Of a stretch of DNA of 64,000 bases, positions 40,245 to 63,025 are shown in pieces. Positions within the stretch are counted from its first letter, which is position 1; every line of letters begins with the position of its first letter. The notes beneath the pieces are model-generated. The model did not search any database. It saw only the letters and a program-made list of their open reading frames with translations, and was not told where the DNA came from. The translations under genes were made by a program, and so were the position numbers. Source of the stretch: Candidatus Omnitrophota bacterium (GTDB lineage: Bacteria > Omnitrophota > Gorgyraeia > JABMRG01); NCBI GenBank assembly GCA_030593065.1, contig JAUVHV010000001.1, positions 145,965 to 209,964 on the forward strand, read 5' to 3'.

Positions 40245-40256
40245 AGATTATATCTT

Positions 40257-40838: not shown

Positions 40839-40887
40839 TCCTAGATACTGCACCCAGCATCTAGTATCCAAGATAGGAGTATTAGTT

Positions 40888-42099: not shown

Positions 42100-42114
42100 G
42101 ATGCTGGAGAAGTA

Positions 42115-42510: not shown

Positions 42511-42526
42511 AAGGAGGGGCATTATT

Positions 42527-42940: not shown

Positions 42941-43012
42941 TAACCGAATAGAGTGTCTCTTACATCAATATTAGGGGAATGACAAATATGTCATTCCCCT
43001 TTTTTAAATATT

Positions 43013-45391: not shown

Positions 45392-45458
45392 AGCAGATTT
45401 TATGGCCTATTATGTGTATGGCATGCCGGTACTGAAAGGTATAAATTAATATTCTATT

Positions 45459-47108
45459 ATGGAAAACATATTTTACGTTATAAGCAGATTATGTTCTAAG
45501 TTTGCTCCTCTGCCATTATCTCTCGGTATAGAGATAAGCTCCAACTCTATCAAGACAGCATTGGTAAAACAGGATTCCCACGGCTCAGCTTCTCTTATAG
45601 ATTACGAAATAACGCAGGTAAACAATAAAGATAATGCCCCAATCATATTTAAAGAGATATTAAAGTCTAAAGGTATCTCATCATCAGTTAATGTAAAGTT
45701 TGTCGTCTCGGGAGCTGATGTGGATTCCAAAAGGGCAAAACTTTCCTCCATGCCGGAAGAGGAGATAGCCGCGGCGTTAAGATGGCAGGCTAAAGAACAT
45801 TTTCTCTTTAACATAGATGAGTCTATGCTTGATTTTGAAGTGCTGAGATTAGCAGAGAAACAGGATGGTTCAGGCGGAGTTGAGGTTATAGCCAATATAG
45901 CAAAGAATGAAATCATAGATAGCAGAATATCACTATTAAAAAATACAGGTATTGTCCCCTCTGTTATCATACCTGTTGCTTATGGTTTGCGTAATATTTA
46001 CAATATCTCAAATATGCAGGACGGAGATAATCCGGTAGCAATTATAGATATAGGTGCTGATACAACTACTATTGTAATAATAAAAGATAAGAATATAAGG
46101 TTTATAAGGCAGATAAGCTGTGCCGGAGGTGACTGCACAAAGGCTATGTCCGGCGCATTTGTTTCGGGTAAAGGAAGAATAGAACTTTCTCCTGAGAAAG
46201 CTGAAGCATTTAAAAAAGAATTTGGAATTCCAAATTGTTCTGAAGGAGAGCTTAAGGACGGGGTATCTGCCGCACAAATTGCTTCTATGCTGAGGCCTGT
46301 GCTTGAGAAGCTTGGTAACAATATAAGGCGTTCATTCGATTACTATATAAGCCAGTTTCAAGAAGAAAATATATCAAAAATATACATAAGCGGCGGAACG
46401 TCCAGCATGAAGAATATAGAATCTCAACTCTTTAAGATGTTATCTGTGCCTGTTGAGAAACTTAATGTTCCAAAGAGCATAAAACTAAAAATTCCAAAAG
46501 AAAAGGTTAAAAACCTTAATGATGATTTTGCGTTTATAGCGCCTGCTATTGGAGCTGCTTTGCACAATATTGAAGGATTAAATCTTATTCCTTTAATATA
46601 TAAAAAAGATAAAATAAGGAAGATCGAGAAGATTTCCGCAAGGCTGGCGTTTATATTTATTGTAATGCTGTTATCCGTATTTTATCTTTTTAATCTTGGC
46701 CATGAAGGGGTATTAGTGAAGATATTAAATGCACAGCGCCCACAATGGCAGAAGCTACAGGAAGTGCGGGAGCTTCACGCGCGGATAACTCAGAAGAATG
46801 CAATAATGAACCAAACGCTAAAGAGGCAAATACCTTTATATTATCTATTTAAAGCGTTGGCTAACGCAATACCAAGAGAGATTTATCTGCGCGATCTTAG
46901 CATAGAAGAGCAAGCTACCAGTATGAGCATGGAAGGGATTGTCGTGGAGACAAGCGAGCTAGCAGAGATTACATTGTCAAAATTCATAAAGTCTTTGGAA
47001 GATTCTATATTTTTTCACGATGTTTTATTAGGTTCAACCCAGGATGTGGAGATATCAGGCAGACAGGCGTTAGAGTTTAAGATAAGCTGTGGATTGGGAA
47101 GAGGTTAG
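45459..47108 (+). CDS. PilM-PilN fusion (type IV pilus assembly)
   Basis: N-terminal actin-like PilM (LGIEISSNSIKTALVK). At about aa 370, LNLIPLIYKKDK (PilN INLLP-like) is followed by a TM helix. Confidence 0.6.
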   Translation: MENIFYVISRLCSKFAPLPLSLGIEISSNSIKTALVKQDSHGSASLIDYEITQVNNKDNAPIIFKEILKSKGISSSVNVKFVVSGADVDSKRAKLSSMPEEEIAAALRWQAKEHFLFNIDESMLDFEVLRLAEKQDGSGGVEVIANIAKNEIIDSRISLLKNTGIVPSVIIPVAYGLRNIYNISNMQDGDNPVAIIDIGADTTTIVIIKDKNIRFIRQISCAGGDCTKAMSGAFVSGKGRIELSPEKAEAFKKEFGIPNCSEGELKDGVSAAQIASMLRPVLEKLGNNIRRSFDYYISQFQEENISKIYISGGTSSMKNIESQLFKMLSVPVEKLNVPKSIKLKIPKEKVKNLNDDFAFIAPAIGAALHNIEGLNLIPLIYKKDKIRKIEKISARLAFIFIVMLLSVFYLFNLGHEGVLVKILNAQRPQWQKLQEVRELHARITQKNAIMNQTLKRQIPLYYLFKALANAIPREIYLRDLSIEEQATSMSMEGIVVETSELAEITLSKFIKSLEDSIFFHDVLLGSTQDVEISGRQALEFKISCGLGRG

Positions 47109-47696
47109 ATGAAAAAGGCCGTTATAAAAAACAAGAAGCAATTGTTAAGCATATCCGCAATAGTGTTTGTTGTTTTAATACTTTTTGTATTTGCCTATAT
47201 ACCACAACATCAAAAAGTGAGTAGCCTGAAGAAACAGGTGCAGGATATAGATGAGCAGATAAACCTTACCAAGTCTATACTTGGTGATATGAAGAGATTG
47301 GGGCCTTTTTTAGGCCAGATGCAACAGGAGATGAAGCGTTTTGAGGATAGGCTTCCTACTACGAAAGAGATAGCGTCAGTAGTATCGGAATTATCAAACC
47401 GTTTTAAAAAAGCCTCTTCACTTGAGGTTTTAAGCATAAGGCTGCAGAAACCTTTGCCTGTTTTAGATAACGATTACAAGCCTGTCTATATGGATGGAAA
47501 GCCACTTAATAAAATAGAGATAGAGCTTAAGTTTCGGGCTACTTATGAGGACTTAGCAGAGTATATCAGAAAGGTGCAGGATAGCCCAAAGACACTTGCA
47601 AGCATAGACAGTATAAAGATAAGTAAAGACGACAGCATAACTCCAAGCTTAGGTATTGTGGCTTTATTTACTATCTATGTAATCGATAGGGGTTGA
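47109..47696 (+). CDS. PilO-like pilus assembly protein
   Basis: N-terminal TM, coiled coil, then ferredoxin-like domain. Position after pilMN. Confidence 0.4.
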   Translation: MKKAVIKNKKQLLSISAIVFVVLILFVFAYIPQHQKVSSLKKQVQDIDEQINLTKSILGDMKRLGPFLGQMQQEMKRFEDRLPTTKEIASVVSELSNRFKKASSLEVLSIRLQKPLPVLDNDYKPVYMDGKPLNKIEIELKFRATYEDLAEYIRKVQDSPKTLASIDSIKISKDDSITPSLGIVALFTIYVIDRG

Positions 47697-47703
47697 CCTT
47701 AAT

Positions 47704-48207
47704 ATGAATTTTATCGATTTTAAAAATCTTAATACAAAATCAAAAATAGAGATTATAGCCACCTCTTTTATGATAATCGTTTTTATACTGATACTCGCAA
47801 ATAGTTTAAAGACTGTATTTAAGTCAAAGAAGTTGACCAGCGAAAATTTTTATATGTCAACGGATGCGTTTAAGGAGATAATAAAAAGAGATGTTATAAG
47901 CCCAAAAGATACAGGGGTAGTCGGTAACCGGGATATATATAAGGATATAAAAAAGGAAGAAGATCTTAAGCCCTGGGGCAGAGACCCTTTTTCTGAGAAA
48001 ACCGCTTTAAGCGTCGGGAGTATGCCTATATCAAATCTTAAGGTCGAAGGCATCTTTTTCCAGCACGATCAAACTCCACAGGCAATCATAAATGGAGAGG
48101 TCTTAGAAGAAGGTGATAAAATAGGGGATATTACTATAATAGAAATAAATAAAGATACAGTCATAGTAACTGATGGAGAGAAGAATTATAACTTGCATCT
48201 ATGGTGA
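47704..48207 (+). CDS. Hypothetical membrane-anchored protein (PilP-like position)
   Basis: Single TM. Last gene of the pilMNO-like run. Confidence 0.25.
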   Translation: MNFIDFKNLNTKSKIEIIATSFMIIVFILILANSLKTVFKSKKLTSENFYMSTDAFKEIIKRDVISPKDTGVVGNRDIYKDIKKEEDLKPWGRDPFSEKTALSVGSMPISNLKVEGIFFQHDQTPQAIINGEVLEEGDKIGDITIIEINKDTVIVTDGEKNYNLHLW

Positions 48208-48567: not shown

Positions 48568-49835
48568 ATGAAAAAACTCGTCATACTTATAATCATTATT
48601 ATTTCCACGTTTAATAGTATCCCTCGATTACACTCGGAACGAGCAAGCCAGGGCGATGCCCTGAGGCCCATGGCTACACGTATATTTCCTGAATATAATC
48701 AAATAATAGAACATATCAAGAGAGACCATCGTTATTGGAAAAGAACCGGCGAATCTGCTTTAGGAGAGGTAAGCCAGTTTAAAGTAAGCGTTAGAGAACA
48801 CCCAGGCAATCCTATACTTATTCCTGATTATAAGAATGAGGTTTTTGTATTAAATCCAGGTGCGATAAGAATAGGGGATACATATTATTTAGCTGTACGG
48901 TCATCAACTCGTGATAAGCTATCAAGGATATTTATTGCAACCAGTAAGGACGGTTACAATTTTCAAAGAAAGCCCGGATTCTTTTATGCGATTCCTGGTA
49001 TAGATTCAAATGGTGGCATCGAAGACTCGAGACTTTTAATTGTAAAAGAGTTTCCTAACAGAGTATTTATGCATTTTACCTATTGCCATGATGGTATATT
49101 TGAAATTGCCGAAAGCTCTATTGCTATGCAGGACTTTATAAATATAAACCCTGCAGGGTGGAGCCCTATGAAAAGGCTCTTTCCCGGAAAGAGGGATAAA
49201 GATTTTGTGCTGATACCGCGAATGTTGAATAATAGATACTATGCCTACCACCGGCCTGAATTTGAAAGCGGACAATTAGTTGGACGAGGCATACATCTAG
49301 CTTATACAGATAACCTTATTGACGGCACATGGGAGGACTTGGGCATGGTAATGGCTCCCAGGAAAGATTACTGGATAGGAGCAGGGGTGGTACTAGAGGC
49401 AGAGAATGCCTGGATTTTGATTTATCATGAAGCGCAACAGCTTGCTGATACGGACAAACGCTATGTATGCAAAATTGCTCTAATAGATAAAGAAAATCCG
49501 GCAAATATTCTTTATGCTCCTGAAGAGCCGATACTTGAAAGCAATCCATCTGAGACAGAGATGCTTAAAAAGACAATAGGGCTTGAGTCTTGGGTCCCCA
49601 ATGTTAAATTTATAAATGGCGCTATAGTATTGGGGAAAGAGAGGCTGTGACTGAAGGAAGTGAAATTGTTCTTTATTATGGTCTTAATGATACGGTTGTA
49701 TCTGCTGCAATATTAAAAATTGAGAAAATGCCGGATATTTCAAATGGAAGAAAGGCAGTGCCTAATAAGCCCTTCTCGGGTATAAATTTCGGCCAAAATA
49801 AAACTGTTTTAATAAATATTGACTCTGCTGCCTAA
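48568..49835 (+). pseudogene. GH130-like (DUF377) glycosidase/phosphorylase, apparent frameshift near 49645
   Basis: ORF 48568-49650 has the GNPIL / beta-propeller signature. The overlapping ORF at 49647 continues with EIVLYYGLNDTV (C-terminal GH130 hallmark VLYYGAADT) in another frame. Confidence 0.4.
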
Positions 49836-49989
49836 CCACCCTTTTTAATTGATACCTGCCGATTCAAACTCTTGACTATTTATATTTCATCAGGTATACT
49901 TCTTTTATATTCCATAACTAACGCGTAACTTTATTGTAAGGTATTTTTTAAATACTTTAGAAAAGATTTGAATACCACATTTTAAAAAT

Positions 49990-52900
49990 ATGCTATATTT
50001 AAAATTAATACATAGTAAATTTATTTCAATTATACTATTACTTGCTATTAGTGTTACTACGTCTGCCTATGGCAGTACTAACCCCGCGCTTTTTACCAGA
50101 AAATCCCATGCGCAACGTTACTTAAAAAAATCTGGCAATAAATTGCCCCTCGATTTTACCGGTAAAGACTCATCGTCGGCTATAAACATTCCCCGGAGAT
50201 TAGGGGTTGTGGTGGAGCGTTATAATGGTGAAAGTGGTTATACAGTTATACATATTCAGGACTCCCATATCAACCCTACAGCTCAGTTTAATATAGCAAG
50301 CATAATAGAAGAGATTGCCACAAAATACAACACATCTCTTATGTGCTTAGAAGGTGCTTCTGCAGAACTTGATATATCCTTTTATGATAAGTTTCCTGAT
50401 GATGAAGCAAAGCGCAGAATAGCAGGTTTTTTTGTGGAAAGAAGCCTTTTTACGGGTGCTGAGTTCTATAAAATATTACACAAAGCCCAATATTTGAAAA
50501 CTATAGGCGTAGAAGATAAAAAGGCCTATTTAGAACACCTTTTTTACCATAGAAAAAATCGGCTAAGTAGAGAGGTTGTATTAGGATCTCTTAAGGAGCT
50601 TGAAAGAGGCCTAATCAGTTTAAAGAGTAGAGTATATTCCAAAAGTTTAAAAGACTTAAGCGGAAAAAGCTGTCTTTATCATTTGAAGCAGTTTAAGCTG
50701 CCTGAATATCTTAATATATTAGAGAAATATTCTAAAAAAGCAAAGATAGATATCTCTAGATATGAGAACCTTATTAAAATGCTTGCGCTTATGGAAAAAG
50801 AGAAAGAGCTAGATTTTCAAGCAGCGGCAACGGAAAGAGAAGCACTAGTTCTTTATCTTTCAGAATTACTGCCTGCCAAAAAGCTGAGAGAGCTTTCCGC
50901 AATGAGCCTTAATTTTAAACTCAACAAGAGATCGGACATTGAATTCTATACCTATCTTGAACAATTCCTCAATAGCCAGTTGTTGCAAGTTAAAGATGCA
51001 ATACGCGCTATGCGCTACAACCATCTTATTGCTTACATAGATTATCTTAAATTCTCAAAGTCTATCGATTATCTTATGGTTTATGATGAGGCAGAGCGCT
51101 TAGAAGAGGAGGTTTCAAAAGCACTTTGCACAAATTCAACACAACAGAGGCTTGTTGAATACACCAAAGCTGTAAGTATCCTGCTGGATTTTTACGAGTT
51201 GAAGCTTACCAGCGGCAGGTTAGATTACATGGATAGAAATCAGGATTATTTTGATATTCAAAACATAATACAGTTTTTGAAAGAGGCTTGCAATAAATAT
51301 GGTTTGCCTCTTGAAGATGCTCTCCTTGTATCTATAGACAAGATGTTTATTGAAAACACTAAAAATTTTTACGAGATAGCGCTGAAACGGGATATAGCCA
51401 TTACAGAAAATACACTAAAATCTATGAGATGTCAGCGTAAAGACAGGGCCATACTAATAACAGGGGGGTTCCATACCCGGGGCATAACTAATATCTTAAA
51501 AGAGAAGGGTATATCCTATGTTGTAATATGCCCTAACATCGGCTTAATGGATTCAGAAAGGCTTTATTTAGATAGATTAGCAGGCAGGCTGCAGGATGTT
51601 TCAGAGCTAACAGAGCTTTTTAGCCAGACACTAACAGCCCCTCTTGTTACAGGGGATGCTTCAGTAGCAGAAGTAAGCTTTATCGCGCAAGAAGCATTTA
51701 AAATGTGCTGGAATATTTCAAATAATGCGAAAAAACTCAACACCCCAGCTCATAAAGCTGAAGAGATGGTGCGTCAGATTAACAGCCGTAGCATAAAAAT
51801 ATACCCATATGACAAGAAAAACGACGCCTATATGTTAGATAAAGGGGGAGTGTTAAAAGCAATTTATGATTCTGACTATCCCGTAGTTGTTAGGTTTATG
51901 ATAGAGGGTATTTCTGATTATGTTATTTTAGGTTTTAGGGTGGAAGAAGACGGCATATCTGCTTTGTCTACACACTTTCCTGATGACCTGCAGGGTAAAA
52001 GGTTAAATTCGCAAGTTTTCGAAGCCTTAGGCAATGTGATAGAGAAAGGCGCAATACTTAGGGCAAAGATATCTAATTCTATGACCAGGAAGAGATTGTT
52101 TAGTGCTTTTGAAGTAGTAGCTGGTAGTATAAAAAAGAGAGGGGCGGGGGATAATATTGTCGTTGATGAAAATCTTATTGCGGATGCCTTTTCAAAAACA
52201 CTTATGGGTAATCTATTTGCAAGGGCCGGGTTTAGCAATTTCAAACTTATGCTTAAGAGAAATAATGGTAGCTATATGAGGGGCCTTGAGGCCTTGACCA
52301 ATATTTTACTTGCGAGCAGAGACGGAAAAAAGACAGGAGAATTTTGTCTTGAGGCTGTAAAATTATATAGCAGGCAACCCACCCTTCCTCAGCCCCAGGA
52401 TGGCGAAAAGGCCGAGCCTATAAAATCCTCATCCGCGGGCAAGGAGCAGGCCAAAGAAGATATCACCATGGAACGCTTATCAGAAAAGGAGAGAGAGGCT
52501 ATTGCTGACGTTTCAGATAAGGTCTTGGCAGTATATCCAAAATTTAAGATACATAAAAAGGAGCTTAACTACTTTATAATGCTGATAGGCCCAGGCGACT
52601 TCTCAAAGGCATTTGCTAATAATCTTGTGGCAGTTGTCAATGCCCTCAAGACAGTCTTTAGAAATTGGGATGAAGATAAACTCACTGCTCTCATCAAACA
52701 TGTTACCCAAGATGCCTTTACAAAGGCATTTGCTAATAATCCAGCGGCAGTTGCTCATGCTCTCAGGATAATCTTTGCTGACTGGGATAAATACACCATC
52801 TTTATAACTCACATTAATAAAGATGACTTCTCAAAAGCATTTGCTGATAATCCTATAGCAGTTGCTTATGTCCTCAGGACAATTTTTGCTAATTGGGATA

Positions 52901-55900
52901 AATACATTACCTTCATAGCCAATTTTAATAAAGACGTACTCTCAAAGGTGCTTATTGATAATCCACAGGCAGTTGCTTATGCTTTCAGAATAATCTTTGT
53001 TAATGAGGATGAAGATAAGCTTACTGCTCTCATCAAACATGTTACCCAAGCTGCCTTTACAAAGGCATTTGCTGATAATCCAAGGGCAGTTGCTCATGCT
53101 CTCACGATAATCTTTGCTGACTGGGATAAATACACCATCTTTATAACTCACATTAATAAAGATGACTTCTCAAAAGCATTTGCTGATAATCCACAGGCAT
53201 TTGCTGATATTCTCTTGGCAACCTTTGTTGACTGGGATAAATACATTACTTTCATAACTCATGTTACCCAATCCGCTTTCTCAAAGGCACTTGCTGATAA
53301 TCCTGTGGCGGTTACCAATAGTATCGCGAAAATATTTAATAACTGGGATGAATACAATAAGCTTTATAGCCAATACGGTAGGCAACTAAATATATTGCGC
53401 GATTATGCATCTGAGACGGATCAGCAGGATATAACAGATATCTTTATTATTATAAAGATGTTTGATATATTGAAACTCTTGAAAGACTTACCCAAAGAAG
53501 CAGATAGGAGACTCTTAAGAGAACTTCTTGATAAGAAGGGGTTAGAAGGCCTCTATCTTATCTTAAAGTTCTTCTATGAGTTCAATCCTCTCTTTGCTGA
53601 TAAGCACAAACCATCCTTTATAAGGAACTTCTTAGGTATTAACTTTATTAATCAGGAGTTCGGATTCCGTTACGGCCGTAATTACGCCTATATATCTGCA
53701 GGAGAGAACAGGGAACCTGTATATACAATTACCAAGGTCTTCGGTTCAATCCCTTCAGCCAAAGAAGAGTTTAATGGGCTTAAACTGCTTGAGGAATTTG
53801 GCAAACTTACAAAAATCACACTAAACGAAAAATCTACATCCATAACTTACTCTACAACAGAACCAGGCCTGTTTATCATGCCTACTGAGTTTATGGCTTA
53901 TGCCTCAAAACAAGAGAGAATGAAGATACTCATATCATTATTAAAAGAGTCGTTGCTTCAGATATACTCACTTGCACATAAAGGATACGCTCACACCAGC
54001 TTAACTTCTCTGAGTCATGGCATAAGGGACGATAACACGCCCAATGAGTGGATACCATATAGAGGAGGAGAGATAACCGATGTCCAAGAAGGCTTAAAAC
54101 ACCTTAATTTTCGTCCTGGTATAGGTTTAGTGGATGCGGAACATATATTTTATTCAAGGGAACTGGAACATTTAGACAGCAGCATTCTTAATAAAGATGT
54201 AGCAGGTTCAGTCTTTGAGCTTTTGTTAGGCCTTTGTTACGGAGCTATAGTACAAGGCTTCTCAACAGATGAGATAGTATCCTCGTTTACCTCAATAGAA
54301 TTAGATATAGATGCTTTACCAGGTGAACTTCAGCACAAACAACAGATTTTTAAAGGTTCTGAAAAGCATCTCAGAAGGATAATCAATGATATCATAACTG
54401 ACCATATACCGCATCAGAGAGACACCAACGCTCTTCTTCCATGGCTTGAAGAAAATCTACCCGGCCTTCTTACTGTAACAGCCAGCGAAAATAGGGTTAT
54501 CCTGCCGGAACTTATTAATGTGTTGGATTATGCCCTTACAAAATCCTCATCCGCGGGCAAGGAAAAGGTCAAAGAAGAGATTATCATAGAAGGCTTATTG
54601 GAAAAGGAGAGAGCCCAGAGGATTTCAGGGCTTTTAGGTGAATTAGCCTCTATAAATAGCATGCAGGAGGTACTGCCGCTTAAATGGATGGAGACAATAT
54701 CTTCCTTTGATATTATTGAGTTTTTTAAAAATATTAGGGGTATAGAATTAGAGGCAGAAAACCTGCTAATGGCAAAACTTTTATGGCATATTGTATGCCA
54801 CACACTCGGGATAGAAGGCAGGCCGCTCAAGCCATTTTATGAGTTGGTGATACTGGATATAAGTGAAGAGAGCATAGCAGGACATTCTGCTGAATTTTCT
54901 TACTATTTAAGGCTTATGATTGAAGAAAAAATGGAAAAAGAGATAAAAGTTGAGATTGAGAAAATGCTTAAAGAAAAAAAGGTGAAAAAAAGAGAAAGCT
55001 TGATAGAAGAGTGGGATAAGGCTGTCGATGGTTTATTAGAAGAATATATTAATAACATAACTCTGCTTTTGAAAGATATAGAGGTTGAATTTAAGAGACA
55101 GGATTTATTTAAAGGGATCGAAGGAGCAATGGAACATTTTAGAGAGCGCTTTAACTATGTTTCAATAAAGCATTCTTCCGCGGGCAGAGAAACAAGGGGT
55201 AAGAAAAATAAACCTGTTGCTGATTTTACGCTAAGAATAACAAAAGAGATGATTCAGGCGGTTATGGATGGCAGTGAGTTTAGAAGCGCAAAAAACGGGA
55301 AGGATTATGAAATTAAGGCTGCTGTGGAAGAAGACTGGCTTGTTATATGGGTAAAAGAGGGTGGACAGCCCGACGAACTTAATAGAGACGAACATTCTTA
55401 TATCGAACTCGACTTAAAATTCACGGAAAATAAAAATAAAACCGAGATCCTTATTGACAGGGAAAGCATTAAAGAACCGGACAGCGGTATATTGACCAAT
55501 ATCCTGGATTATATTATTCCTTATTTTAATGAAATTACTTATGTTTCAACCAACCAATGCCCGCAGATAATAGCCGGAGCTGAAAGGACAATCGAGAATA
55601 TATTGAGAAGATCCGGCAGGGGATTTAAAACTGTTCAAAATAATTTTGGCGGGGTTTTTTATATCAACAAGCCGAAACCATTTAATCCGCATCTTAAGAA
55701 AAGCGAAAAAGAGCACCTCTCCGCCATAAAGCTTTCTTCCGCGGGAGAAGGTGGGGTTGCCCACGATGTCCATAAAGACGGCTCTCTTTCAATGGATAGG
55801 AGACAATTTTTGAAACAGTTGGTGGGAATCCCGGCCTTCTTAACTGTGCTTGGAACCAATAAGAGAGAGGCCTCAGCGCAGGGAAATATATTTGAAGATC

Positions 55901-58851
55901 CCCGCGATTTAATTCTTGATTTTGGCCAAGCGATAGACAGCACTGTTCTTGAAAAATATATTTCTGTGATTAAGGAACAAGGGCTTTTAGAGTTTAGCAG
56001 TGTTATTCAAAACGATTCTGATACAATGATTATTGTAAAGCTGGGGGAAAATAAGGTTGATGCCGAGGTAGTTGCCGGGAGGCTAAACAAGGCGCTATCA
56101 GGCAAAATTAGTTTTGCTAAAAAGTTTAAGTGTGTAAAGAGCAGCATTATATGGGAAGAGACTAAGACCTATAAAGAGATAGAGAATTTTGTGAATAGAG
56201 TTGCCCGTATTTCAGACTCATTGGGTATGGGTAGGGTGAATAGGGATAATCTCAGAACTTTGCTGGAAGGAGTTACCTATGTAGAGAGTAAGTACCTTCA
56301 TTGGGAGCGCAGATTTGGCAAGATTAAACCAATAGAGTCATATACAGGCGCGATAGGCGCGACTCAGCTTGTAAAAAGTAAAGCCGTAAAACATATTGCT
56401 GAACTCGTATTTAAGCATAAGGATGGCCTGATAAAATACAGTAGTATTATCTCAGAGCTGAAAAGAGTTTTGGAAGAAAAGAATCCAGAGGAGAATTATC
56501 TGTCCGCTTATTTTGAAGCAGGAGATGACACCGTTCTGCAAAGATACGCCGTAGAGAAATTAAGGAGAAAGATACTTGCTAACCCTTTATTAAAAGGGGT
56601 TAATCTATATTACGCGCTTTCATTATGGTTAATACTGGTTGAAAACAAAAAAATTTCCACTACGTTAAAAATAGATAGAAAGATAATAGAGCAGATAGCC
56701 AATATAGCGCAATCCGACAGCAATGTCATCTCAGGAAAGGGCGCTTATAAACCTAAGAATTTACATGAAGCAGAATGCCGATGCGGGCAGGATCTTTTAA
56801 GGGCAGAGGTTATTTTCAGGATGCTGGGCGAGGAGGTTATCAAAGATATTGCCATAAAGCATAAAACCAACAGCAAAAGATTTGAGGTGTTATTTAACTA
56901 TATGAAGGTAAAGGTATTCAATGATAAATCATATAACCAGAAGGTTGGATATGTATATCTTTTCTATTTGTGGGACAGGGCCCGCAGGCTGCAGTTAAAA
57001 AAAAGAGAGCAAGGTTATGCTTTTACAGAAGAACTGCCTGAGTATTTTGAATTTAATTCTCGTAGTTTTGATGAGAGATTAGCGGCTGCTGCTGCTTATA
57101 ACTCAGGCTGGAGCACAGTTAGCAAGGCGTTAAAGGGTTTTGGCGCAGAGAAAGATAAAGATACAATCCCCCGCTGGATTAAGAATATGATAGGGCCAAA
57201 CCGCCGAAATCCCAGAGAACCGATTAACTATCTGCGGACATATTTAGAATATATACTCCACTACAAGAGTGTTTTAGTTGATAAGGATTACAATTTAATG
57301 TGCGCTTTAATTGAAGAACGTTATAATCGTTTGCGATATGTGGCCACTAAGAAAGGGCCACGCCTTATTGAATATAGTAAAATCATAACTTCAGACGGGC
57401 AAAAACGATATACTGAATCAGAAAGAAGCAAGGATGATTTATTTAATTATAAGCTGGCTTCTTTACTAGCATCATTGCTCGGCAGCGATTATGTGGATAG
57501 CTATATTATCAGTTGGGGGATGCCAGGCTGGGAAGATAATATTTTAAGCTCTACAGCGCCAACCTTTAAATGGCTGGCAAAACGCATGTATAATGAAGAG
57601 AGTGTTTATCGTGAAAAAGGAGAGCAGGTATTGAATTATTTCAGGGATAACAAAAAGCAATATGGTAAATCTTTAGCAGCGTTAGAAAATTCAATAAGTG
57701 CCCTGACAAAGCACAAAGAGCCGTGGATAGTTTTGCAGAAAAAGATTAAAGCAGAAGCTAAAAGACAAAAAATCAGGGGGTATCTGGTTTGGGGCTTCAA
57801 GTACGCGACGCCAGTTTTTTTGGCAGGGCTTATTCCCGCGGCGCTTGGGTACATAATTTACAGGCGTCTCAAGCGTGAAAAAGCTTCTAAAGTGGGAGAA
57901 GCCGTAAAGACGCCTAAGCCGAAAAAAAGACAGGTTATATACAAACCTCCGGCTTTATATAAAAGCAAGACAACAGGAAAAGTGTATCTTGGAAAAGCTT
58001 TTGTTTCAGACAAAGAACAGAAATACACTGTTGAGAAAAGTGAAAAAAAGCACCCTCCCATTATGAAGTCTTCTTCTAGCGGTGAAAACAGAAACGAAAT
58101 TATAACAGAAATGCCTATTATTAAGCAGGCAAGCATATCTGGCCAGCAGCTTTCCGCGCAGGCCCTGGAATTAGAGAAGTTATGTGTCAGCATGTTTAAT
58201 TTTCCTTATGATCTTCAATTTGGCTATAGCCCATATCGCTATGGGATTATAATTGATGAGGCAGTGTTACGGAATGAAGAAAAGCGGATAATTGAATTTT
58301 TGGCATCTCAGAAAACCTCAACCGGCAAGGCTAAATTTATTATTCTTATTAATACAAAAGATGCAAAAGAGAGTATGATTGATAAATGGGGTTTACTGCA
58401 TGAGAATATATTGAGTGTAGATAAATTTTTTAAGCAGAGAGGTGTTGACCAATCATGGTTAGGTTCAGAACAGGCTAAGGTTATACAAGCGGCAAGACTG
58501 CTTAAGAATAGGATAAGCCAGGGCCAGCCTATAGGAATTATCGCGGGGCCGTCTGTGGACATAGAAAAGATGGCGCATAACATGCAAAGGGAGAATGTAA
58601 AAGGAGTATTTATATCCTCACAACAACCGGCTGCCGCGCAAATAGATATAAGTGAAACTTCGATAATTGCTAATTTTATGTTTGAAGCTCTTTTAGCTGA
58701 TATTCTGCTTAAGCTGAAATCCTATAACCCTGCCAAAAAATACACGATACAGGAACTTATTGAGATTCTTCCGCCAATAATAAGCATAGAATTTATGGAG
58801 AAGATAGAACTTCTTAAAGCCGCGACAGAAGCTATCTCTCAGGCTGCTTAA
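49990..58851 (+). CDS. Giant secreted/membrane-associated multidomain protein (2953 aa), function unknown
   Basis: Sec signal peptide. Tandem ~38-aa repeats (aa ~870-1130). Five K-S-S-A-G linker motifs. Internal Tat-like signal (MDRRQFLK...ASAQ) at aa ~1935. TM helix near aa 2600. Confidence 0.6.
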   Translation: MLYLKLIHSKFISIILLLAISVTTSAYGSTNPALFTRKSHAQRYLKKSGNKLPLDFTGKDSSSAINIPRRLGVVVERYNGESGYTVIHIQDSHINPTAQFNIASIIEEIATKYNTSLMCLEGASAELDISFYDKFPDDEAKRRIAGFFVERSLFTGAEFYKILHKAQYLKTIGVEDKKAYLEHLFYHRKNRLSREVVLGSLKELERGLISLKSRVYSKSLKDLSGKSCLYHLKQFKLPEYLNILEKYSKKAKIDISRYENLIKMLALMEKEKELDFQAAATEREALVLYLSELLPAKKLRELSAMSLNFKLNKRSDIEFYTYLEQFLNSQLLQVKDAIRAMRYNHLIAYIDYLKFSKSIDYLMVYDEAERLEEEVSKALCTNSTQQRLVEYTKAVSILLDFYELKLTSGRLDYMDRNQDYFDIQNIIQFLKEACNKYGLPLEDALLVSIDKMFIENTKNFYEIALKRDIAITENTLKSMRCQRKDRAILITGGFHTRGITNILKEKGISYVVICPNIGLMDSERLYLDRLAGRLQDVSELTELFSQTLTAPLVTGDASVAEVSFIAQEAFKMCWNISNNAKKLNTPAHKAEEMVRQINSRSIKIYPYDKKNDAYMLDKGGVLKAIYDSDYPVVVRFMIEGISDYVILGFRVEEDGISALSTHFPDDLQGKRLNSQVFEALGNVIEKGAILRAKISNSMTRKRLFSAFEVVAGSIKKRGAGDNIVVDENLIADAFSKTLMGNLFARAGFSNFKLMLKRNNGSYMRGLEALTNILLASRDGKKTGEFCLEAVKLYSRQPTLPQPQDGEKAEPIKSSSAGKEQAKEDITMERLSEKEREAIADVSDKVLAVYPKFKIHKKELNYFIMLIGPGDFSKAFANNLVAVVNALKTVFRNWDEDKLTALIKHVTQDAFTKAFANNPAAVAHALRIIFADWDKYTIFITHINKDDFSKAFADNPIAVAYVLRTIFANWDKYITFIANFNKDVLSKVLIDNPQAVAYAFRIIFVNEDEDKLTALIKHVTQAAFTKAFADNPRAVAHALTIIFADWDKYTIFITHINKDDFSKAFADNPQAFADILLATFVDWDKYITFITHVTQSAFSKALADNPVAVTNSIAKIFNNWDEYNKLYSQYGRQLNILRDYASETDQQDITDIFIIIKMFDILKLLKDLPKEADRRLLRELLDKKGLEGLYLILKFFYEFNPLFADKHKPSFIRNFLGINFINQEFGFRYGRNYAYISAGENREPVYTITKVFGSIPSAKEEFNGLKLLEEFGKLTKITLNEKSTSITYSTTEPGLFIMPTEFMAYASKQERMKILISLLKESLLQIYSLAHKGYAHTSLTSLSHGIRDDNTPNEWIPYRGGEITDVQEGLKHLNFRPGIGLVDAEHIFYSRELEHLDSSILNKDVAGSVFELLLGLCYGAIVQGFSTDEIVSSFTSIELDIDALPGELQHKQQIFKGSEKHLRRIINDIITDHIPHQRDTNALLPWLEENLPGLLTVTASENRVILPELINVLDYALTKSSSAGKEKVKEEIIIEGLLEKERAQRISGLLGELASINSMQEVLPLKWMETISSFDIIEFFKNIRGIELEAENLLMAKLLWHIVCHTLGIEGRPLKPFYELVILDISEESIAGHSAEFSYYLRLMIEEKMEKEIKVEIEKMLKEKKVKKRESLIEEWDKAVDGLLEEYINNITLLLKDIEVEFKRQDLFKGIEGAMEHFRERFNYVSIKHSSAGRETRGKKNKPVADFTLRITKEMIQAVMDGSEFRSAKNGKDYEIKAAVEEDWLVIWVKEGGQPDELNRDEHSYIELDLKFTENKNKTEILIDRESIKEPDSGILTNILDYIIPYFNEITYVSTNQCPQIIAGAERTIENILRRSGRGFKTVQNNFGGVFYINKPKPFNPHLKKSEKEHLSAIKLSSAGEGGVAHDVHKDGSLSMDRRQFLKQLVGIPAFLTVLGTNKREASAQGNIFEDPRDLILDFGQAIDSTVLEKYISVIKEQGLLEFSSVIQNDSDTMIIVKLGENKVDAEVVAGRLNKALSGKISFAKKFKCVKSSIIWEETKTYKEIENFVNRVARISDSLGMGRVNRDNLRTLLEGVTYVESKYLHWERRFGKIKPIESYTGAIGATQLVKSKAVKHIAELVFKHKDGLIKYSSIISELKRVLEEKNPEENYLSAYFEAGDDTVLQRYAVEKLRRKILANPLLKGVNLYYALSLWLILVENKKISTTLKIDRKIIEQIANIAQSDSNVISGKGAYKPKNLHEAECRCGQDLLRAEVIFRMLGEEVIKDIAIKHKTNSKRFEVLFNYMKVKVFNDKSYNQKVGYVYLFYLWDRARRLQLKKREQGYAFTEELPEYFEFNSRSFDERLAAAAAYNSGWSTVSKALKGFGAEKDKDTIPRWIKNMIGPNRRNPREPINYLRTYLEYILHYKSVLVDKDYNLMCALIEERYNRLRYVATKKGPRLIEYSKIITSDGQKRYTESERSKDDLFNYKLASLLASLLGSDYVDSYIISWGMPGWEDNILSSTAPTFKWLAKRMYNEESVYREKGEQVLNYFRDNKKQYGKSLAALENSISALTKHKEPWIVLQKKIKAEAKRQKIRGYLVWGFKYATPVFLAGLIPAALGYIIYRRLKREKASKVGEAVKTPKPKKRQVIYKPPALYKSKTTGKVYLGKAFVSDKEQKYTVEKSEKKHPPIMKSSSSGENRNEIITEMPIIKQASISGQQLSAQALELEKLCVSMFNFPYDLQFGYSPYRYGIIIDEAVLRNEEKRIIEFLASQKTSTGKAKFIILINTKDAKESMIDKWGLLHENILSVDKFFKQRGVDQSWLGSEQAKVIQAARLLKNRISQGQPIGIIAGPSVDIEKMAHNMQRENVKGVFISSQQPAAAQIDISETSIIANFMFEALLADILLKLKSYNPAKKYTIQELIEILPPIISIEFMEKIELLKAATEAISQAA
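52596..53380 (+). repeat. Coding tandem repeats (~114-117 nt unit, 7 copies) with a 339-nt higher-order duplication
   Basis: Repeating unit (D/A)FSKAFA(D/N)NP.AVA.ALR.IFA.WDKY(T/I)(I/T)FI.H(I/V)(N/T)(K/Q). 52678-52870 and 53017-53209 are near-identical. Mirrored by duplicated antisense ORFs. Confidence 0.8.
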
Positions 58852-59081
58852 TTCCTATATTATTAAAAAAAGAGAATGCTTAGAGGGTGAGTCAAATCAT
58901 CCTTTTTTTAATTTCGGAGATGCCCTACCTCATCCAAACATCCTCACTACAAATATACCTAATAATATCAAGAAGTCAATAGGCATGAAGCAAAAAAATA
59001 ATGCTTGACAGCTTAGTTGTATTTTTGTTATACTTTTTTTAAAAGAGTTTTTAAACCGTGGAATAAAAAGGGGGTATAAAT

Positions 59082-60305
59082 ATGGTAGTTAGGCAAACAT
59101 TATTCAGAGACCAGGTCTTATCAGATCGCGAAAGGAAAAATTTGGCTATTCTGGATGTTATCAGAAAGAGTGGACCGGTTACAAGAACAGAGATATCGAA
59201 GGTTACAAAGCTTAATATTGTGACTGTGTCAAATTATGTAAACAACTATATTGACAAGAACCTGATTATAGAGAAAGGGTTTGATGTCTCAACAGGTGGC
59301 AGAAAGCCTACCCTGGTTGAACTGAATGCTAAGATGGGTAATGTTATAGGTATTGATATCGGCCCTGTTAATATGGTCGCGGTTATTACTGATCTGACAA
59401 ATACAGTTATAGGAAAAACAAAAAGGCTTCGCCCTGACGGACCTATGAGTGAAGTCATAACTAGTTCCATTGAAATGGTTTATGAAATAATGGAGAAATC
59501 AAAGGTTGATAAAAATAAGATAAAGGGTGTTGGCCTCGGTGTTTCCGGTGTGATTGATTCCATAGCAGGAACAGTAAGGGATACAGATCTTACTAGAGGA
59601 AGAACAACAGGAAGCTATACTTCTGTTAAGTCTCTTGTACAGAAGGAGTTTAATATTCCTACGTTTGTGGGTAACGATGCTACTGTGGCAGCATTTGGGG
59701 AAAAGAGATTAGGTTTAGAGCAGGAGATAGATGATATGCTCTATGTCTACTCTGACGTAGGTTGTGGTATCATAATAAAAGGAGAGATATATTGCGGAGC
59801 AGGTGGAAGCGCGGGTGAGATGCAGCTTACAGCAGATAATCCAGAACTGCCTTTGCAGGGTAAAGACCCATCATATTTGCGGCCCTGGGGAGTTGACCTG
59901 GGTATAACTCAGGAAGCGCACCAGATACTTTCAAAAGAGAAGGCCGATTCTAAAATAATGGATCTTGCTGGAGATGACTTGGATAATATTACACCTGATA
60001 TTATTATAGAGGCTGCTAAGGCTAAGGACAAGATAGCTATGGAGATTATTGAACGTGCAGGCGCGAACTTAGGTATTAGAATAGCCTATCTTGTAAATCT
60101 TTTTAATCCAGAAGTAGTGGTAATCGGGGGAGGCATAGAACAGGCAGGAGAACTGCTTCTTGGGCCTGTAAGAAAAACAGTAAGAAATCTTGCTTTTGAA
60201 GAACCGGCAAATACAGTTAAAATAGTGCCTTCAAGACTTGGTGACAGCGCTGTAGCATTAGGCGCGGCAGCGCTTGTTTTGAGAGAGATTTTTGCGCAGA
60301 TCTAA
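59082..60305 (+). CDS. ROK family transcriptional regulator
   Basis: N-terminal winged HTH (ILDVIRKSGPVTRTEISKVTKLNIVTVSNYV). ROK sugar-kinase-like domain with CGAGG and glycine-rich ATPase-fold motifs. Confidence 0.75.
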   Translation: MVVRQTLFRDQVLSDRERKNLAILDVIRKSGPVTRTEISKVTKLNIVTVSNYVNNYIDKNLIIEKGFDVSTGGRKPTLVELNAKMGNVIGIDIGPVNMVAVITDLTNTVIGKTKRLRPDGPMSEVITSSIEMVYEIMEKSKVDKNKIKGVGLGVSGVIDSIAGTVRDTDLTRGRTTGSYTSVKSLVQKEFNIPTFVGNDATVAAFGEKRLGLEQEIDDMLYVYSDVGCGIIIKGEIYCGAGGSAGEMQLTADNPELPLQGKDPSYLRPWGVDLGITQEAHQILSKEKADSKIMDLAGDDLDNITPDIIIEAAKAKDKIAMEIIERAGANLGIRIAYLVNLFNPEVVVIGGGIEQAGELLLGPVRKTVRNLAFEEPANTVKIVPSRLGDSAVALGAAALVLREIFAQI

Positions 60306-60496: not shown

Positions 60497-63025
60497 ATGA
60501 AAATGATGCGGTGGGCGTTTTTCTTTATTTTTTTCTCTATATCTGCGCTGTTTATATGCAGTTTTGATACGGTTTTAGCACAACCATATGAAACCGTATC
60601 ACCCTATATATTGGCTGATTTACAATATGAGCAATATCCTGGTTTTTCCCGTATCATGGTTGCATCAAATGAAAAGATAGCTTTTGTCTCTTATGAACTC
60701 CAAAACCCTTATAGGATTGTAATAGATCTTATAGGGGTCTCTTTTTGTGAACTACAGGAGTATATTGAATATGAAGAAGGCCTTGTTAAATCGATTGAGA
60801 TAATAGAGACACCTTATGTAAAACGCTTACCAGGCCTTGATGAGTACTTTTACGCAGTAGACTATATAATTATTACGCCACGCTCTAAGCTTTCCTTTAC
60901 TGTATCATCATCAGAGGATGAAAAGGTAATAGTAGTGGATATTGGTGATCAATCAGAAGATAGTGTAGATACAAAACCGGAAGAAGAAGTAAGCCCTGTT
61001 AAAAAGGATCCTATTGGCCAAGAGCTTACAGCAGTGCCAAAGCCTGAATCATCGGTTATAAAAGAGAATATAATCGGTTATATCAATTTTGAAACTTTAG
61101 ATGACGCTTCTTTGATTATCATTATATCCAATAACGAGGTTGTATATAAAATAGAAAGGAACCATTATCCTGATTTTAATATAGTATTAATACCTCAGGA
61201 TCCGGTATTCACGGATCTGGAAGAGTATGCGGAACTTGATACAGGGTATTTGAAATCCGTAAGGATTGTAAAAGATACCATAGCGCCTAAACCAGAATCG
61301 CTTGATAATTATTATTATCCTATAAAATATATAGTAATAGAGCCGAACGTTGACCTGCCTTTTGATTTTTATTCGAATAATGACGGAACCATATCTATTT
61401 TAGAGATATACTACCCTGATATTGATAAAAGAAAAAAAGAGGCCATAGTTGAGAAAAAAGAAGTTGTAGCTGATGTTGATATGGAAAAAGAGGCGGAATT
61501 GTTTGCGCAGGATGTCAGAATGAGCCTGCTTAAACAATTTAAGGAAGAGATAAAGAAAGAAAGCCTGTTGAGTAAAGAAAAAGTTGCGGAGCTTAAAAAA
61601 GAAGAACTTGAAAAGAGGAGAAAAGAGATAAGCAAAAAGGCAGAGACTATTGGCAGAGAGCTCTTAAAAGACCTTATTATTACAGGAAAGGGCATGTTGA
61701 GCCTCAAGAGATCACAGGATATTGCCATTGAGAACAATCTACAGGCTAAGATCTTAAAGGAAGAGGTAAAGCTTACAATGCTGAAAAAGAGGGATGCATT
61801 CAGGTCCCTATTCCCTAATGTGAAGCTCAAGGCATCACATACGGTCGGAGATGTTATGGAAGATATTGCCTTTACTGAAGAACAGTATGGCGTAGAAGGA
61901 GAACAGGTTCTTTATCAGGGCGGCAGGCTAATGAATGCATACAAACAGAGTAAGGTGAATGTCGCTCTTTCAGAAGCCAGGTGCAAGAAGATAGTGAATG
62001 ACCTGAATTTTAAGGTTGCGGAGGCATATTATAATATTGTGACAGCGGTAATGAATATAAGATTGCAGAAAGAGCTTTTTGAACAGGCAGAGGTAATTGT
62101 TGAATTGGCAGATAAGAGGTATGAGGCGGGTTTAAGTACTAATCTTGAGATACTCAATGTAAAATCGCGTTATAACCAGATACAATTTCAGCTTGCTACG
62201 GCAGAAAGGGATTTGGCATTGGCAAGGTTTAAGCTTAAGCAGGTAATAGGCCTTGATATTAGTGAACAGGATATAGATCTTTCCGAAGTCGATACAGAAC
62301 TTCCATTTAAGATTGTTGATATCAATCTGGATGAGTGTTTAAAAGCAGCGTCAAATAATCAGCCTGATATAGTGGTCAATAAGCTGCTCGTTGAATCTAA
62401 TGACTATGGAGAAAAGATTGCCCAGGGAAAAGAAGGGTTTAGTGTAGATTTGACAGGATTTTATGGCAGAGGGGATTCTTATTATGATACAGAACCAAAA
62501 AATTTGGATAATAACTGGAATGTAGGCCTTAAGGTGAGTAAGCCTTTCTGGTTTGCTACACCGTCGTATTCATTTACAAGAGATAAGACCAGCATGAAAG
62601 TCGGAGATACTGACAGAACAGGTTCAACTGTAAATTCAGGCGAAATAGCTATACTTGATAAGAACGCGCTTGCCGTGAGATCAGAGATTAAAGAGGCAAA
62701 GATTAATAAGCAGAAAGCTGAAAATGAATTGATAGAGACAAGGCGGCAGGCAGCTCTGGAGATAAAAGAGGCGTATTATAATTACCAGGAGTCTATTTTG
62801 CAGGTAAAAAACACCCTGGAAAAGGTGCGTTTTCATAAAGAGGCTACAAAGGTTGCAATGGCACAGGCCTCACTAAATGAAGCGCTCCAGTCACAATTAC
62901 TGGAGGCCATGATACAGCTTGTTGATGAAAAGTCAGTTTACATAAAGGCGCTTTCTGATTACAGCCTTGCGATAGTAAAAATTAATAAAGCAATAGGTAT
63001 CAAAGATTATTTTAATATTGATTAA
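60497..63025 (+). CDS. Outer membrane efflux protein (TolC family) fused to N-terminal tandem AMIN-like domains
   Basis: Signal peptide. Two repeated beta-rich modules (NPYRIVIDLIGV / HYPDFNIVLIPQD), a Glu/Lys-rich linker, and a C-terminal ~430 aa with the OEP/TolC double-repeat pattern. Confidence 0.6.
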   Translation: MKMMRWAFFFIFFSISALFICSFDTVLAQPYETVSPYILADLQYEQYPGFSRIMVASNEKIAFVSYELQNPYRIVIDLIGVSFCELQEYIEYEEGLVKSIEIIETPYVKRLPGLDEYFYAVDYIIITPRSKLSFTVSSSEDEKVIVVDIGDQSEDSVDTKPEEEVSPVKKDPIGQELTAVPKPESSVIKENIIGYINFETLDDASLIIIISNNEVVYKIERNHYPDFNIVLIPQDPVFTDLEEYAELDTGYLKSVRIVKDTIAPKPESLDNYYYPIKYIVIEPNVDLPFDFYSNNDGTISILEIYYPDIDKRKKEAIVEKKEVVADVDMEKEAELFAQDVRMSLLKQFKEEIKKESLLSKEKVAELKKEELEKRRKEISKKAETIGRELLKDLIITGKGMLSLKRSQDIAIENNLQAKILKEEVKLTMLKKRDAFRSLFPNVKLKASHTVGDVMEDIAFTEEQYGVEGEQVLYQGGRLMNAYKQSKVNVALSEARCKKIVNDLNFKVAEAYYNIVTAVMNIRLQKELFEQAEVIVELADKRYEAGLSTNLEILNVKSRYNQIQFQLATAERDLALARFKLKQVIGLDISEQDIDLSEVDTELPFKIVDINLDECLKAASNNQPDIVVNKLLVESNDYGEKIAQGKEGFSVDLTGFYGRGDSYYDTEPKNLDNNWNVGLKVSKPFWFATPSYSFTRDKTSMKVGDTDRTGSTVNSGEIAILDKNALAVRSEIKEAKINKQKAENELIETRRQAALEIKEAYYNYQESILQVKNTLEKVRFHKEATKVAMAQASLNEALQSQLLEAMIQLVDEKSVYIKALSDYSLAIVKINKAIGIKDYFNID

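Follow-up and report, generated by a model that had tools for sequence, protein, structure and literature searches.

A giant open reading frame with a recurrent hexapeptide

We analyzed a 64,000-nucleotide (nt) stretch of DNA from a Candidatus Omnitrophota bacterium (contig JAUVHV010000001.1; hereafter, the window) and focused on a giant open reading frame (ORF) and on a short peptide that recurs within its product (the query). ORF calling confirmed what the original prediction, an earlier reading of these letters alone, had reported, namely an ORF of 2953 amino acids (aa) at positions 49990–58851, and no stop codon interrupted its 8.9 kb. The query consisted of six modules, that is, of unrelated units within one ORF, as is characteristic of polyproteins. 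Its main features are listed below in the order in which they occur.

49990..58851, plus strand: giant ORF, 2,953 aa plus stop, ATG start, by ORF calling
49990..50070, plus strand: predicted Sec-type signal peptide or signal anchor (aa 1–27), from the family charge profile and the structural model
50182..51579, plus strand: N-terminal domain (aa ~65–530), candidate protease with a predicted TIKI/TraB/ChaN/erythromycin-esterase-fold hydrolase core
52423..52440, plus strand: motif copy 1, K812-SSSAG817, M1/M2 junction (IKSSSAG)
52441..54540, plus strand: module M2 (aa 818–1517), orphan and mobile, absent from relatives P0002 and P0003 and present in P0004
54541..54558, plus strand: motif copy 2, K1518-SSSAG1523, M2/M3 junction (TKSSSAG)
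54559..55167, plus strand: module M3 (aa 1524–1726), orphan
55168..55185, plus strand: motif copy 3, K1727-HSSAG1732, M3/M4 junction (IKHSSAG)
55186..55728, plus strand: module M4 (aa 1733–1913), orphan, missing from P0003 exactly from motif to motif
55729..55746, plus strand: motif copy 4, K1914-LSSAG1919, M4/M5 junction (IKLSSAG)
55747..58065, plus strand: module M5 (aa 1920–2692)
58066..58083, plus strand: motif copy 5, K2693-SSSSG2698, junction of M5 and the C-terminal module (MKSSSSG)
58084..58848, plus strand: conserved C-terminal module (aa 2699–2953), predicted Rossmann-like alpha/beta fold, ending in ...EAISQAA

The repeated element had originally been described as a K-S-S-A-G-(K/R/E)-E linker that occurs five times and is conserved in its DNA. 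We found five in-frame copies, at residue positions that had been given approximately right (off by up to 8 residues), and the core recurred as K-x-S-S-[A/S]-G; the trailing K/R/E-E was not conserved. Five matches to K.SS[AS]G were observed, compared with 0.0097 expected from the composition of the ORF, and no further in-ORF copy was present in the six frames of the window. For motif copy 5 together with the ~23 residues that follow, the model predicts disorder, with a predicted local distance difference test (pLDDT) score of 35–40. None of the six motif-delimited modules matched Pfam or NCBIfam above threshold. As for the DNA, the 20-mer TCCTCATCCGCGGGCAAGGA was found at 52426 and 54544, and only there, even when three mismatches were allowed; the three other copies differ. 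At these two copies, an ~80-nt junction consisting of the motif and the first ~25 codons after it was duplicated, with unrelated upstream flanks, and this duplication accompanied the insertion of M2. The identical 20-mer is thus accounted for by one recent duplication, and the near-identical KE(Q/K)(A/V)KE...EKER stretches that had been noted after two of the copies are accounted for by the same duplicated junction.

Distribution of the motif in a family of giant proteins

All proteins matched in the homology search were giant (1,600–4,900 aa), and all of those that were named belonged to Candidatus Omnitrophota. They resembled the query over about the first 580 residues, and the GG[FYW]H signature of the N-terminal domain was present in 120 of the 120 homologues listed. 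A scan of species-representative genomes extended the family to at least 556 loci, all from Omnitrophota metagenome-assembled or single-amplified genomes (some mislabelled), with several paralogues per genome, including one complete 1.43-Mb chromosome, and with sizes from 1.1 to 4.9 kilo-amino acids (kaa). All members shared a layout in which a Sec-type signal and an N-terminal domain of ~550 aa are followed by cargo modules that vary between proteins and by a C-terminal end that is conserved. The n-region carried a net charge of +4.0, compared with –0.1 past the hydrophobic region (h-region), in 98 of 109 family proteins, and the family N-terminus can accordingly be classed, from its sequence, as a classical Sec-type signal; a topology survey of Omnitrophota giants in a 2026 preprint agrees. 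In the structural model, residues 2–27 were helical and residues 26–52 followed as a disordered segment.

We then counted matches to the pattern [KR][STAP][SA]S[AS]G in the 30 closest family members (79.9 kaa). These contained 92 matches, compared with a mean of 0.23 (maximum 3) in shuffled sequences, whereas a distant clade of the family contained one match in 273 kaa. As many as 11 motifs were found in one protein. An information profile over 93 sites gave 3.5, 2.1, 3.2, 3.9, 2.8 and 4.2 bits for the six positions, and the flanks were flat (<0.6 bit). The original prediction had named a common low-complexity linker with no positional conservation in homologues as the result that would speak against it; the motif was instead positionally conserved in homologues, and six positions of about 2–4 bits each between flat flanks do not resemble a low-complexity linker. 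As judged from these profiles, a six-residue block of this kind would be the signature of a recognition site rather than of a structural linker. In one clade, the hexapeptide K-[S/A/T/P]-[S/A]-S-[A/S]-G marks nearly every module boundary, and lineage-specific variants of it occurred as well (KTASAG, KPASAG, KTSAGG and KATSAA).

The positions of the outermost copies were also regular. In most clade members, the first copy was located 50–135 residues past the GGFH signature, where the N-terminal domain ends, and throughout the clade a copy or a degenerate version of it directly preceded the conserved C-terminal module of ~250 residues. The query diverges at the first of these sites:

51691..51747, plus strand: site of the first motif of relatives, EAFKMCWNISNNAKKLNTP in the query versus KAFKEIWNIAEKKSSSAG in P0004

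This first copy was lost in the query lineage. As for known sites of processing, the 45 aa preceding each of 82 motif sites contained no hydrophobic segment such as a signal peptidase I-type site would have, and the motif contains neither Cys nor LPXTG, in agreement with the earlier statement that no lipobox or sortase consensus is matched.

Gain and loss of modules together with the motif

The relatives P0002 and P0003, which are collinear homologues with 82–84% identity from independent metagenomes, differ from the query in their modules. P0003 joins the M1 tail with its motif straight to the M3 head, without M2 and one motif, and joins the M3 tail with its motif (KHPSAG) straight to the M5 head, without M4 and one motif; both deletions are exactly in register with the motif. 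P0002 lacks M2 and one motif, and its deletion ends ~22 residues beyond the motif. A homologue of M2 (68% identity) was found elsewhere, in P0004, flanked by motifs. More generally, blocks of homology between relatives terminated at motifs, and proteins cut at motifs gave modules with a median length of ~430 residues, most of them unique. The Pfam domains of relatives each lay inside a single module: Metallophos and HD in P0004, HD in P0005 and HATPase_c in P0009. The module with its motif is thus the unit of gain and loss, which supports the module shuffling suggested in the original prediction: M2 and M4 were each gained or lost between relatives along with one motif.

We searched for stand-alone homologues of the cargo modules, and a word-indexed search returned P0003 only. 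In the corresponding search with the C-terminal module, the only matches were incomplete family genes, namely one with an in-frame stop that splits it and one with masked N runs. The former is P0017/P0136 (L086 6190–6250; also L087), in which a single TAA within the C-terminal module splits the gene; the split was present in two separate sequencing runs and may reflect decay to a pseudogene, an error common to both or a stop codon that is read through. A further observation concerned the syntenic locus TrkH-TrkA-PheS-PheT-MgsA / gene / PALP-HcyBio-EamA (L001 10001–23572 and L085 7339–10705). In one genome, the gene at this locus encodes a member of 4,523 aa with 11 motifs; in the other, it is a compact gene of ~1,120 aa, interrupted by masked N runs, with the N-terminal domain, ...LQKSSSAG... 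and the C-terminal module. Orthologous positions can thus differ by a factor of about four in the cargo that they encode.

A hydrolase-like N-terminal domain

The N-terminal domain was modeled from 34 homologues (pLDDT 81, predicted template modeling score 0.67). The model shows, in order, a signal or transmembrane helix, a disordered tether and an alpha/beta core that is split by a helical insertion of ~300 residues. The predicted core is a parallel beta-sheet with flanking helices, as in the erythromycin-esterase/ChaN/TraB/TIKI superfamily, and the structural comparison scores were 9.8 for a TraB protein, 9.7 for HopBA1, 8.9 for EreC, 8.7 for ChaN and 8.2 for RRSP. Foldseek returned no significant match, and EreC, BcR135, HopBA1 and ChaN recurred among its weak matches. 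At the sequence level, the domain of the query did not match Pfam or NCBIfam (TraB, Erythro_esterase, Cofac_haem_bdg), a profile search of the PDB with the domain returned nothing, and ten diverse N-terminal domains gave only one sub-threshold match, to ChaN (E 0.07).

The residues of interest in the domain are encoded as follows.

50251–50268, plus strand: invariant residues H88, D91 and H93
50344–50361, plus strand: invariant residue E121
51379–51399, plus strand: invariant residues R467/D468
51460–51483, plus strand: invariant residues G492-G493-F-H495

Of these, D91-x-H93, E121, R467 and H495 were invariant in 34–50 family members, and the model places the invariant residues right after the core strands 85–91, 117–120 and 486–492. 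The catalytic set of the superfamily comprises two His, two Glu and a conserved basic residue at strand ends (PMC6254334), and the catalytic residues are E3900, H3902, E3930, R4001 and H4030 in RRSP, a Ras/Rap1-specific endopeptidase of MARTX toxins, and H85 and E113 in Bcr135 (PMC6254334). The H-to-E distance was 28 in the query, RRSP and Bcr135, and the R-to-H distance was 28 in the query versus 29 (R4001 to H4030). The family domain thus has the catalytic-type residues of the superfamily, with Asp in place of the first Glu, and the match is one of order and spacing rather than of residue-level superposition. From the model, we regard the domain as a putative protease-like member of the erythromycin-esterase/ChaN/TraB/TIKI fold.

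With known members of the superfamily, the family domain shares catalytic-type His, Asp/Glu, Glu, Arg and His where the core strands end. TIKI and PrgY are located at the membrane or outside the cytoplasm, and in this respect, too, the family domain resembles them. In contrast to known members, the family domain has no sequence-profile match, contains the insertion of ~300 residues, carries Asp for the first Glu and is invariably followed, in the same chain, by a very long train of cargo.

A polyprotein model and its alternatives

These results led us to the following model. The query would be an exported giant modular protein composed of a Sec-type signal, an N-terminal hydrolase, a train of cargo modules and a C-terminal module, and the hexapeptide, exposed in the linkers, would be the recognition site for site-specific proteolysis. 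Cleavage of the precursor would release the N-terminal enzyme, each of the cargo proteins and the C-terminal module. In evolution, a module with its motif behaves as a cassette that can enter, leave or change its position in register. As the protease, the foremost candidate would be the N-terminal domain of the same chain, because its superfamily includes sequence-specific endopeptidases (the Wnt protease TIKI and RRSP) and because the domain itself is delimited by the first motif copy in most clade members. Cleavage itself is a conditional part of the model, and so are the bond that would be cut, the compartment (cytoplasm, periplasm or target cell) and the identity of the enzyme.

Given the sharp constraint on the peptide, its position in linkers, its coincidence with module boundaries and the hydrolase at the head of these proteins, a protease site is the most economical explanation, and the motif with this boundary use was confined to proteins with a hydrolase domain of an endopeptidase-containing superfamily at their N-terminal end. 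The processing site that was among the original suggestions is accordingly the best-supported reading, in a conditional form. We consider the chances about even that the motifs are protease recognition sites of a secreted polyprotein. That the N-terminal domain is the enzyme that cleaves them is a more tentative proposal. Similarly, we would advance only with considerable doubt the idea of true bacterial polyproteins, in which the TIKI-type protease at the N-terminus cuts its own chain at every K-x-S-S-A-G and frees up to a dozen proteins.

Several observations weigh against proteolysis at the motif or against this choice of enzyme. The superfamily includes esterases and a haem-binding protein, not only proteases. 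The distant clade (143 proteins) contained neither the motif nor any other recurrent junction motif, by exact and reduced-alphabet k-mers, so that an alternative junction motif was rejected there; despite this, it keeps the N-terminal domain and all of its invariant residues, and the conserved role of the domain therefore cannot simply be the cutting of K-x-S-S-A-G. Motif-bearing and motif-less paralogues occur together in one genome. In addition, module starts that resemble signal or transmembrane segments, as might be expected of freed N-termini, were not enriched after motifs (3 versus 1.2 expected, P about 0.1), and this candidate line of evidence was rejected. Finally, the disorder of the junctions comes from the single junction that was modeled, that of copy 5.

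We further considered the possibility that the hexapeptide is modified post-translationally, or bound by a partner, rather than cleaved, so that one long chain functions; examples would be O-glycosylation or phosphorylation of the serines, an isopeptide bond or ligation at the invariant lysine, or a tag for a binding partner. A sharply conserved block with an invariant Lys, a pair of Ser and a Gly, located where the chain is disordered, fits the site of any enzyme, not only of a protease, and Ser/Ala-rich disordered stretches are typical targets of bacterial O-glycosylation. At a distance of 5 kb upstream of the giant ORF, there is a gene for a YfhO-family membrane protein that resembles glycosyltransferases, and several family members carry Ser/Thr kinase modules. 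However, the motif was confined to module boundaries and to this family, and neither the pilins nor any other exported protein of the window contained it, whereas a general modification sequon would be expected to be more widespread; moreover, no modifying enzyme was consistently linked to the family, the genomic context of which is not conserved. We therefore regard modification or docking as an unlikely alternative to a protease site.

Another alternative is that the motif is a passive flexible linker, the copies of which descend from one ancestral junction and are kept alike by concerted evolution. Recombinants would then survive only if they are in register, and the motif would lack a biochemical function. 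To this question we applied a codon comparison of four, and then eight, genes from different genomes. Within a gene, codons were homogenized: Ala was encoded by GCG in 4 of 4 copies in the query and by GCA in 10 of 10 in L001, which is consistent with copying of junctions. Neighboring junctions were alike at 21 of 26 nt, the two invariant serines were nearly always encoded by TCN, as common descent predicts, and the ~80-nt duplicate that flanks M2 and the gain and loss of module and motif as a unit would likewise be expected. Between genomes, however, synonymous sites varied (Lys AAA/AAG 15/14, all four Gly codons, and GCG, GCA and GCT for Ala), so that selection acts on the peptide, and the nucleotide-level conservation claimed in the original prediction was mostly unsupported. 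The motif was nearly invariant although the N-terminal domains were only 35–50% identical and the modules unrelated. Near-invariant residues amid randomized synonymous sites and neighbors indicate purifying selection on the exact peptide, and passive linkers differ in length and composition. In addition, 18 nt with 5–6 degenerate positions are too short for efficient homologous recombination. A passive linker is thus quite unlikely.

One wobble base departed from this pattern and, in this single respect, bore out the claim of nucleotide-level conservation. The second, variable codon of the motif ended in C in 33 of 45 copies in eight genes (the query gene and L001, L003, L004, L005, L010, L028 and L042), compared with a background of 21% (P about 6e-14), and did so independently of the amino acid (TCC, GCC, ACC or CCC). 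In the window, C was present in this position in copies 1 and 2 (codons 52426–52428 and 54544–54546), whereas copies 3–5 end in T. This bias is unaccounted for by selection at the peptide level, and it favors a signal at the level of nucleic acid or translation, such as a recombinase site, mRNA processing, ribosomal pausing or a 2A-like skip. Against such a signal, the remaining wobble positions of the motif were background-like (at most 0.15 bit). RNA elements were considered and rejected: the giant ORF had no Rfam match and the motif gave no signal of RNA structure beyond the effect of GC content. The same was true of internal translation starts, as no start codon or Shine-Dalgarno sequence followed the motifs, no Shine-Dalgarno sequence preceded internal Met codons and most modules lack a Met start. 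Furthermore, no recombinase was linked to the loci, and we know of no 2A-like mechanism in bacteria. We consider this alternative very unlikely. Lastly, the idea that the giant ORF is an artefact of misassembly, or of sequencing errors that fuse separate genes, can practically be set aside: nothing specific favors it, although the in-frame TAA of P0017/P0136 shows that such calls can be fragile, and it is opposed by the stop-free 8.9 kb, the collinear homologues P0002 and P0003 and the hundreds of members with the same N- and C-terminal architecture, one of them on a complete chromosome.

Comparison with known systems

A close parallel to a polyprotein of this kind is found in MARTX toxins, in which variable effector modules are freed by cuts at short sites in unstructured segments between the effectors (PMC2900308). 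Like these toxins (3,500–5,200 aa), the query is a giant, apparently secreted protein with conserved ends and a central train of unrelated modules that vary between strains by recombination, and its modules are gained or lost at the junction motif or at most ~22 residues from it. The MARTX protease domain lies in its own chain, as does a candidate one here, and the MARTX effector RRSP has a TIKI-type fold such as that predicted for the N-terminal domain. In contrast to MARTX, the candidate protease is N-terminal and of another fold, the site is K-x-S-S-A-G rather than one with a P1 leucine, the secretion signal is N-terminal and Sec-type rather than C-terminal and type I, the host belongs to Omnitrophota and the cargo is mostly orphan. 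RTX or glycine-rich repeats gave no Pfam match in the query at E values up to 1, its only internal repeats being 37-aa units in M2, and no Pfam match to a C80 cysteine protease domain was obtained.

Viral polyproteins (e.g. those processed by picornavirus 3C or potyvirus NIa) share with the query one ORF, independent modules, a short peptide at every junction and a protease, here a candidate, that is part of the chain and is itself bordered by the site. In the case of birnavirus VP4, such sites contain many small residues. Here, in contrast, the gene is cellular and chromosomal, its context is housekeeping, no viral genes lie nearby and the candidate fold is unrelated. In CdiA (VENN) and Rhs (PxxxxDPxGL) proteins, a short peptide similarly borders conserved and variable parts at recombination breakpoints, and the Rhs demarcation motif also coincides with autoproteolysis. 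However, those proteins have one border and a toxin/immunity pair, whereas up to 11 borders and no immunity genes were found here.

Within the phylum itself, the reports on Archaeovorin/Dockerin-type giants (West-Roberts 2023) and on 'multi-enzyme metabolic cluster' giants (2026 preprint) describe a predicted signal peptide, membrane association and a tiling of unrelated enzyme domains, with post-translational cleavage proposed; these likenesses extend to the present family. The giants described there differ in size (>20–30 kaa) and in their dockerin, C39, S8 or SecA-like domains, and the passages searched mention neither a junction motif nor a TIKI-like domain at the N-terminus. The query, with 2,953 aa and without dockerin, C39, S8 or SecA-like domains, does not belong to the Archaeovorin/Dockerin type (>30,000 aa). 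In the work of West-Roberts et al., cleavage by C39 or S8 was proposed in far larger proteins, and it was noted that the cleavage points are unknown and that this lack blocks structural and functional analysis of the giants (bioRxiv 10.1101/2023.11.21.568195). In the literature searchable as full text, neither the motif nor an N-terminal domain of the TIKI type was found to be described for Omnitrophota giants. By this comparison, the query would represent an autoprocessing modular giant with a candidate protease, a site and a phylum different from those of the known ones.

The ultra-small bacteria of the Omnitrophota are widespread and uncultured; they probably depend on hosts or prey on other cells, and their genomes hold an unusual wealth of giant genes. 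Whether these giants are single chains or are cut into pieces is a stated open question. For one sizeable clade, the present results make this question directly testable, as they provide a precise and statistically clear-cut candidate for the cleavage code, a candidate for the protease within the chain itself and a rule for cutting the proteins into modules in silico. If the polyprotein model is true, it would represent a bacterial chromosomal polyprotein strategy with a type of protease (TIKI-like) that had not been associated with the processing of polyproteins before. The giant proteins of the phylum would gain their first concrete cleavage code, and putative predatory or parasitic nanobacteria a new self-processing multi-effector class. 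The model would also explain the in-register exchange of cargo modules, and the giant genes would be protein-level 'operons' between which cassettes could be freely shuffled.

Module contents, family observations and genomic surroundings

M2 contains about 5–7 tandem copies of a 37-residue (111-nt) repeat at nt 52600–53352, with the consensus FSKAFADNPxAVAxALRIIFADWDKYTIFITHINKDD and 71–80% identity between copies in DNA. The repeat matched no family and is probably a helical repeat scaffold. In M5, weak lytic-transglycosylase-like motifs were present (ES...GATQL at 56284–56373 and AAYNSG at 57085–57108), with an SLT match under the Pfam threshold (E 0.015), and its transmembrane helix is followed by RRLKR (helix and RRLKR at 57778–57861). 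M5 also contains a segment that we considered as a sign of a free N-terminus:

55789–55881, plus strand: twin-arginine-like segment SMDRRQFLK with an h-region and ASAQ (aa 1934–1964 in M5)

This segment is internal and matched neither Pfam nor TIGRFAM, and no Shine-Dalgarno sequence preceded an internal Met, which gives no support to an internal start in M5. A similar RRxFLK, h-region and AxA occurred in another family of large Omnitrophota proteins (879–2,855 aa; P0121–P0127), ~90 residues past a Sec-like N-terminus that contains a conserved LIQAFLVMDIAWA h-region. As strong evidence for a free N-terminus of M5, and thus for cleavage, the segment was rejected because the same RRxF(L/F)K is internal in this unrelated family without motifs. 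The P0121–P0127 family itself has two apparent export signals in series.

The extreme C-terminal ~25–30 residues (window 58770–58848) were common to both clades of the giant family (P0001–P0120), with the pattern ...LP-x-I/V...E-(I/F)...EAV-x-x-[SA]-[LA]-COOH. Endings were ...KAA, ...QAA and ...SQA in the close clade, ...RSL, ...WSV and ...ISA in the distant clade, and ...QAI, ...QSI and ...SAI in the unrelated M5-type family. This element may be a sorting or recognition signal of Omnitrophota giant proteins; a profile comparison of it was weak (probability 5.8%). The distant clade (P0031–P0120) carries domains of phosphoglucomutase, phosphofructokinase, PTS EI/HPr, cytidylate kinase, other kinases and methyltransferases. 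A Sec-type signal on cytoplasmic-type enzymes that depend on ATP, phosphoenolpyruvate or S-adenosylmethionine would be a topological paradox if the whole chain were exported. These multi-domain members match the 'multi-enzyme' class of the 2026 preprint.

The gene neighborhood of homologues was not conserved and consisted of housekeeping genes, and it revealed no linked protease. In the window, the giant ORF is framed by two candidate signals:

49872..49900, plus strand: promoter-like site upstream of the giant ORF, by consensus scan only (10/12 match)
58882..58905, plus strand: terminator-like hairpin 3′ of the giant ORF, by consensus match only

Directly upstream, a type IV pilus assembly cluster (37050–48207) encodes a PilB-like ATPase, a PilC-like platform protein, PilO, a fused PilM-PilN (549 aa) and a small T2SSB/CdsD_C-like protein, with a YfhO-family membrane protein (43013–45391) embedded in it. 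The next ORF (48568–49650, 360 aa) weakly resembles GH130 beta-1,2-mannobiose phosphorylases, at a sub-threshold level (NCBIfam E 2e-23, far under the cut-off; no Pfam match). Downstream, a ROK-family gene (59082–60305) is followed by a gene for an 842-aa protein (60497–63025) in which two outer-membrane efflux repeats (TolC-like OEP) are joined to an N-terminal AMIN domain, an unusual pairing.

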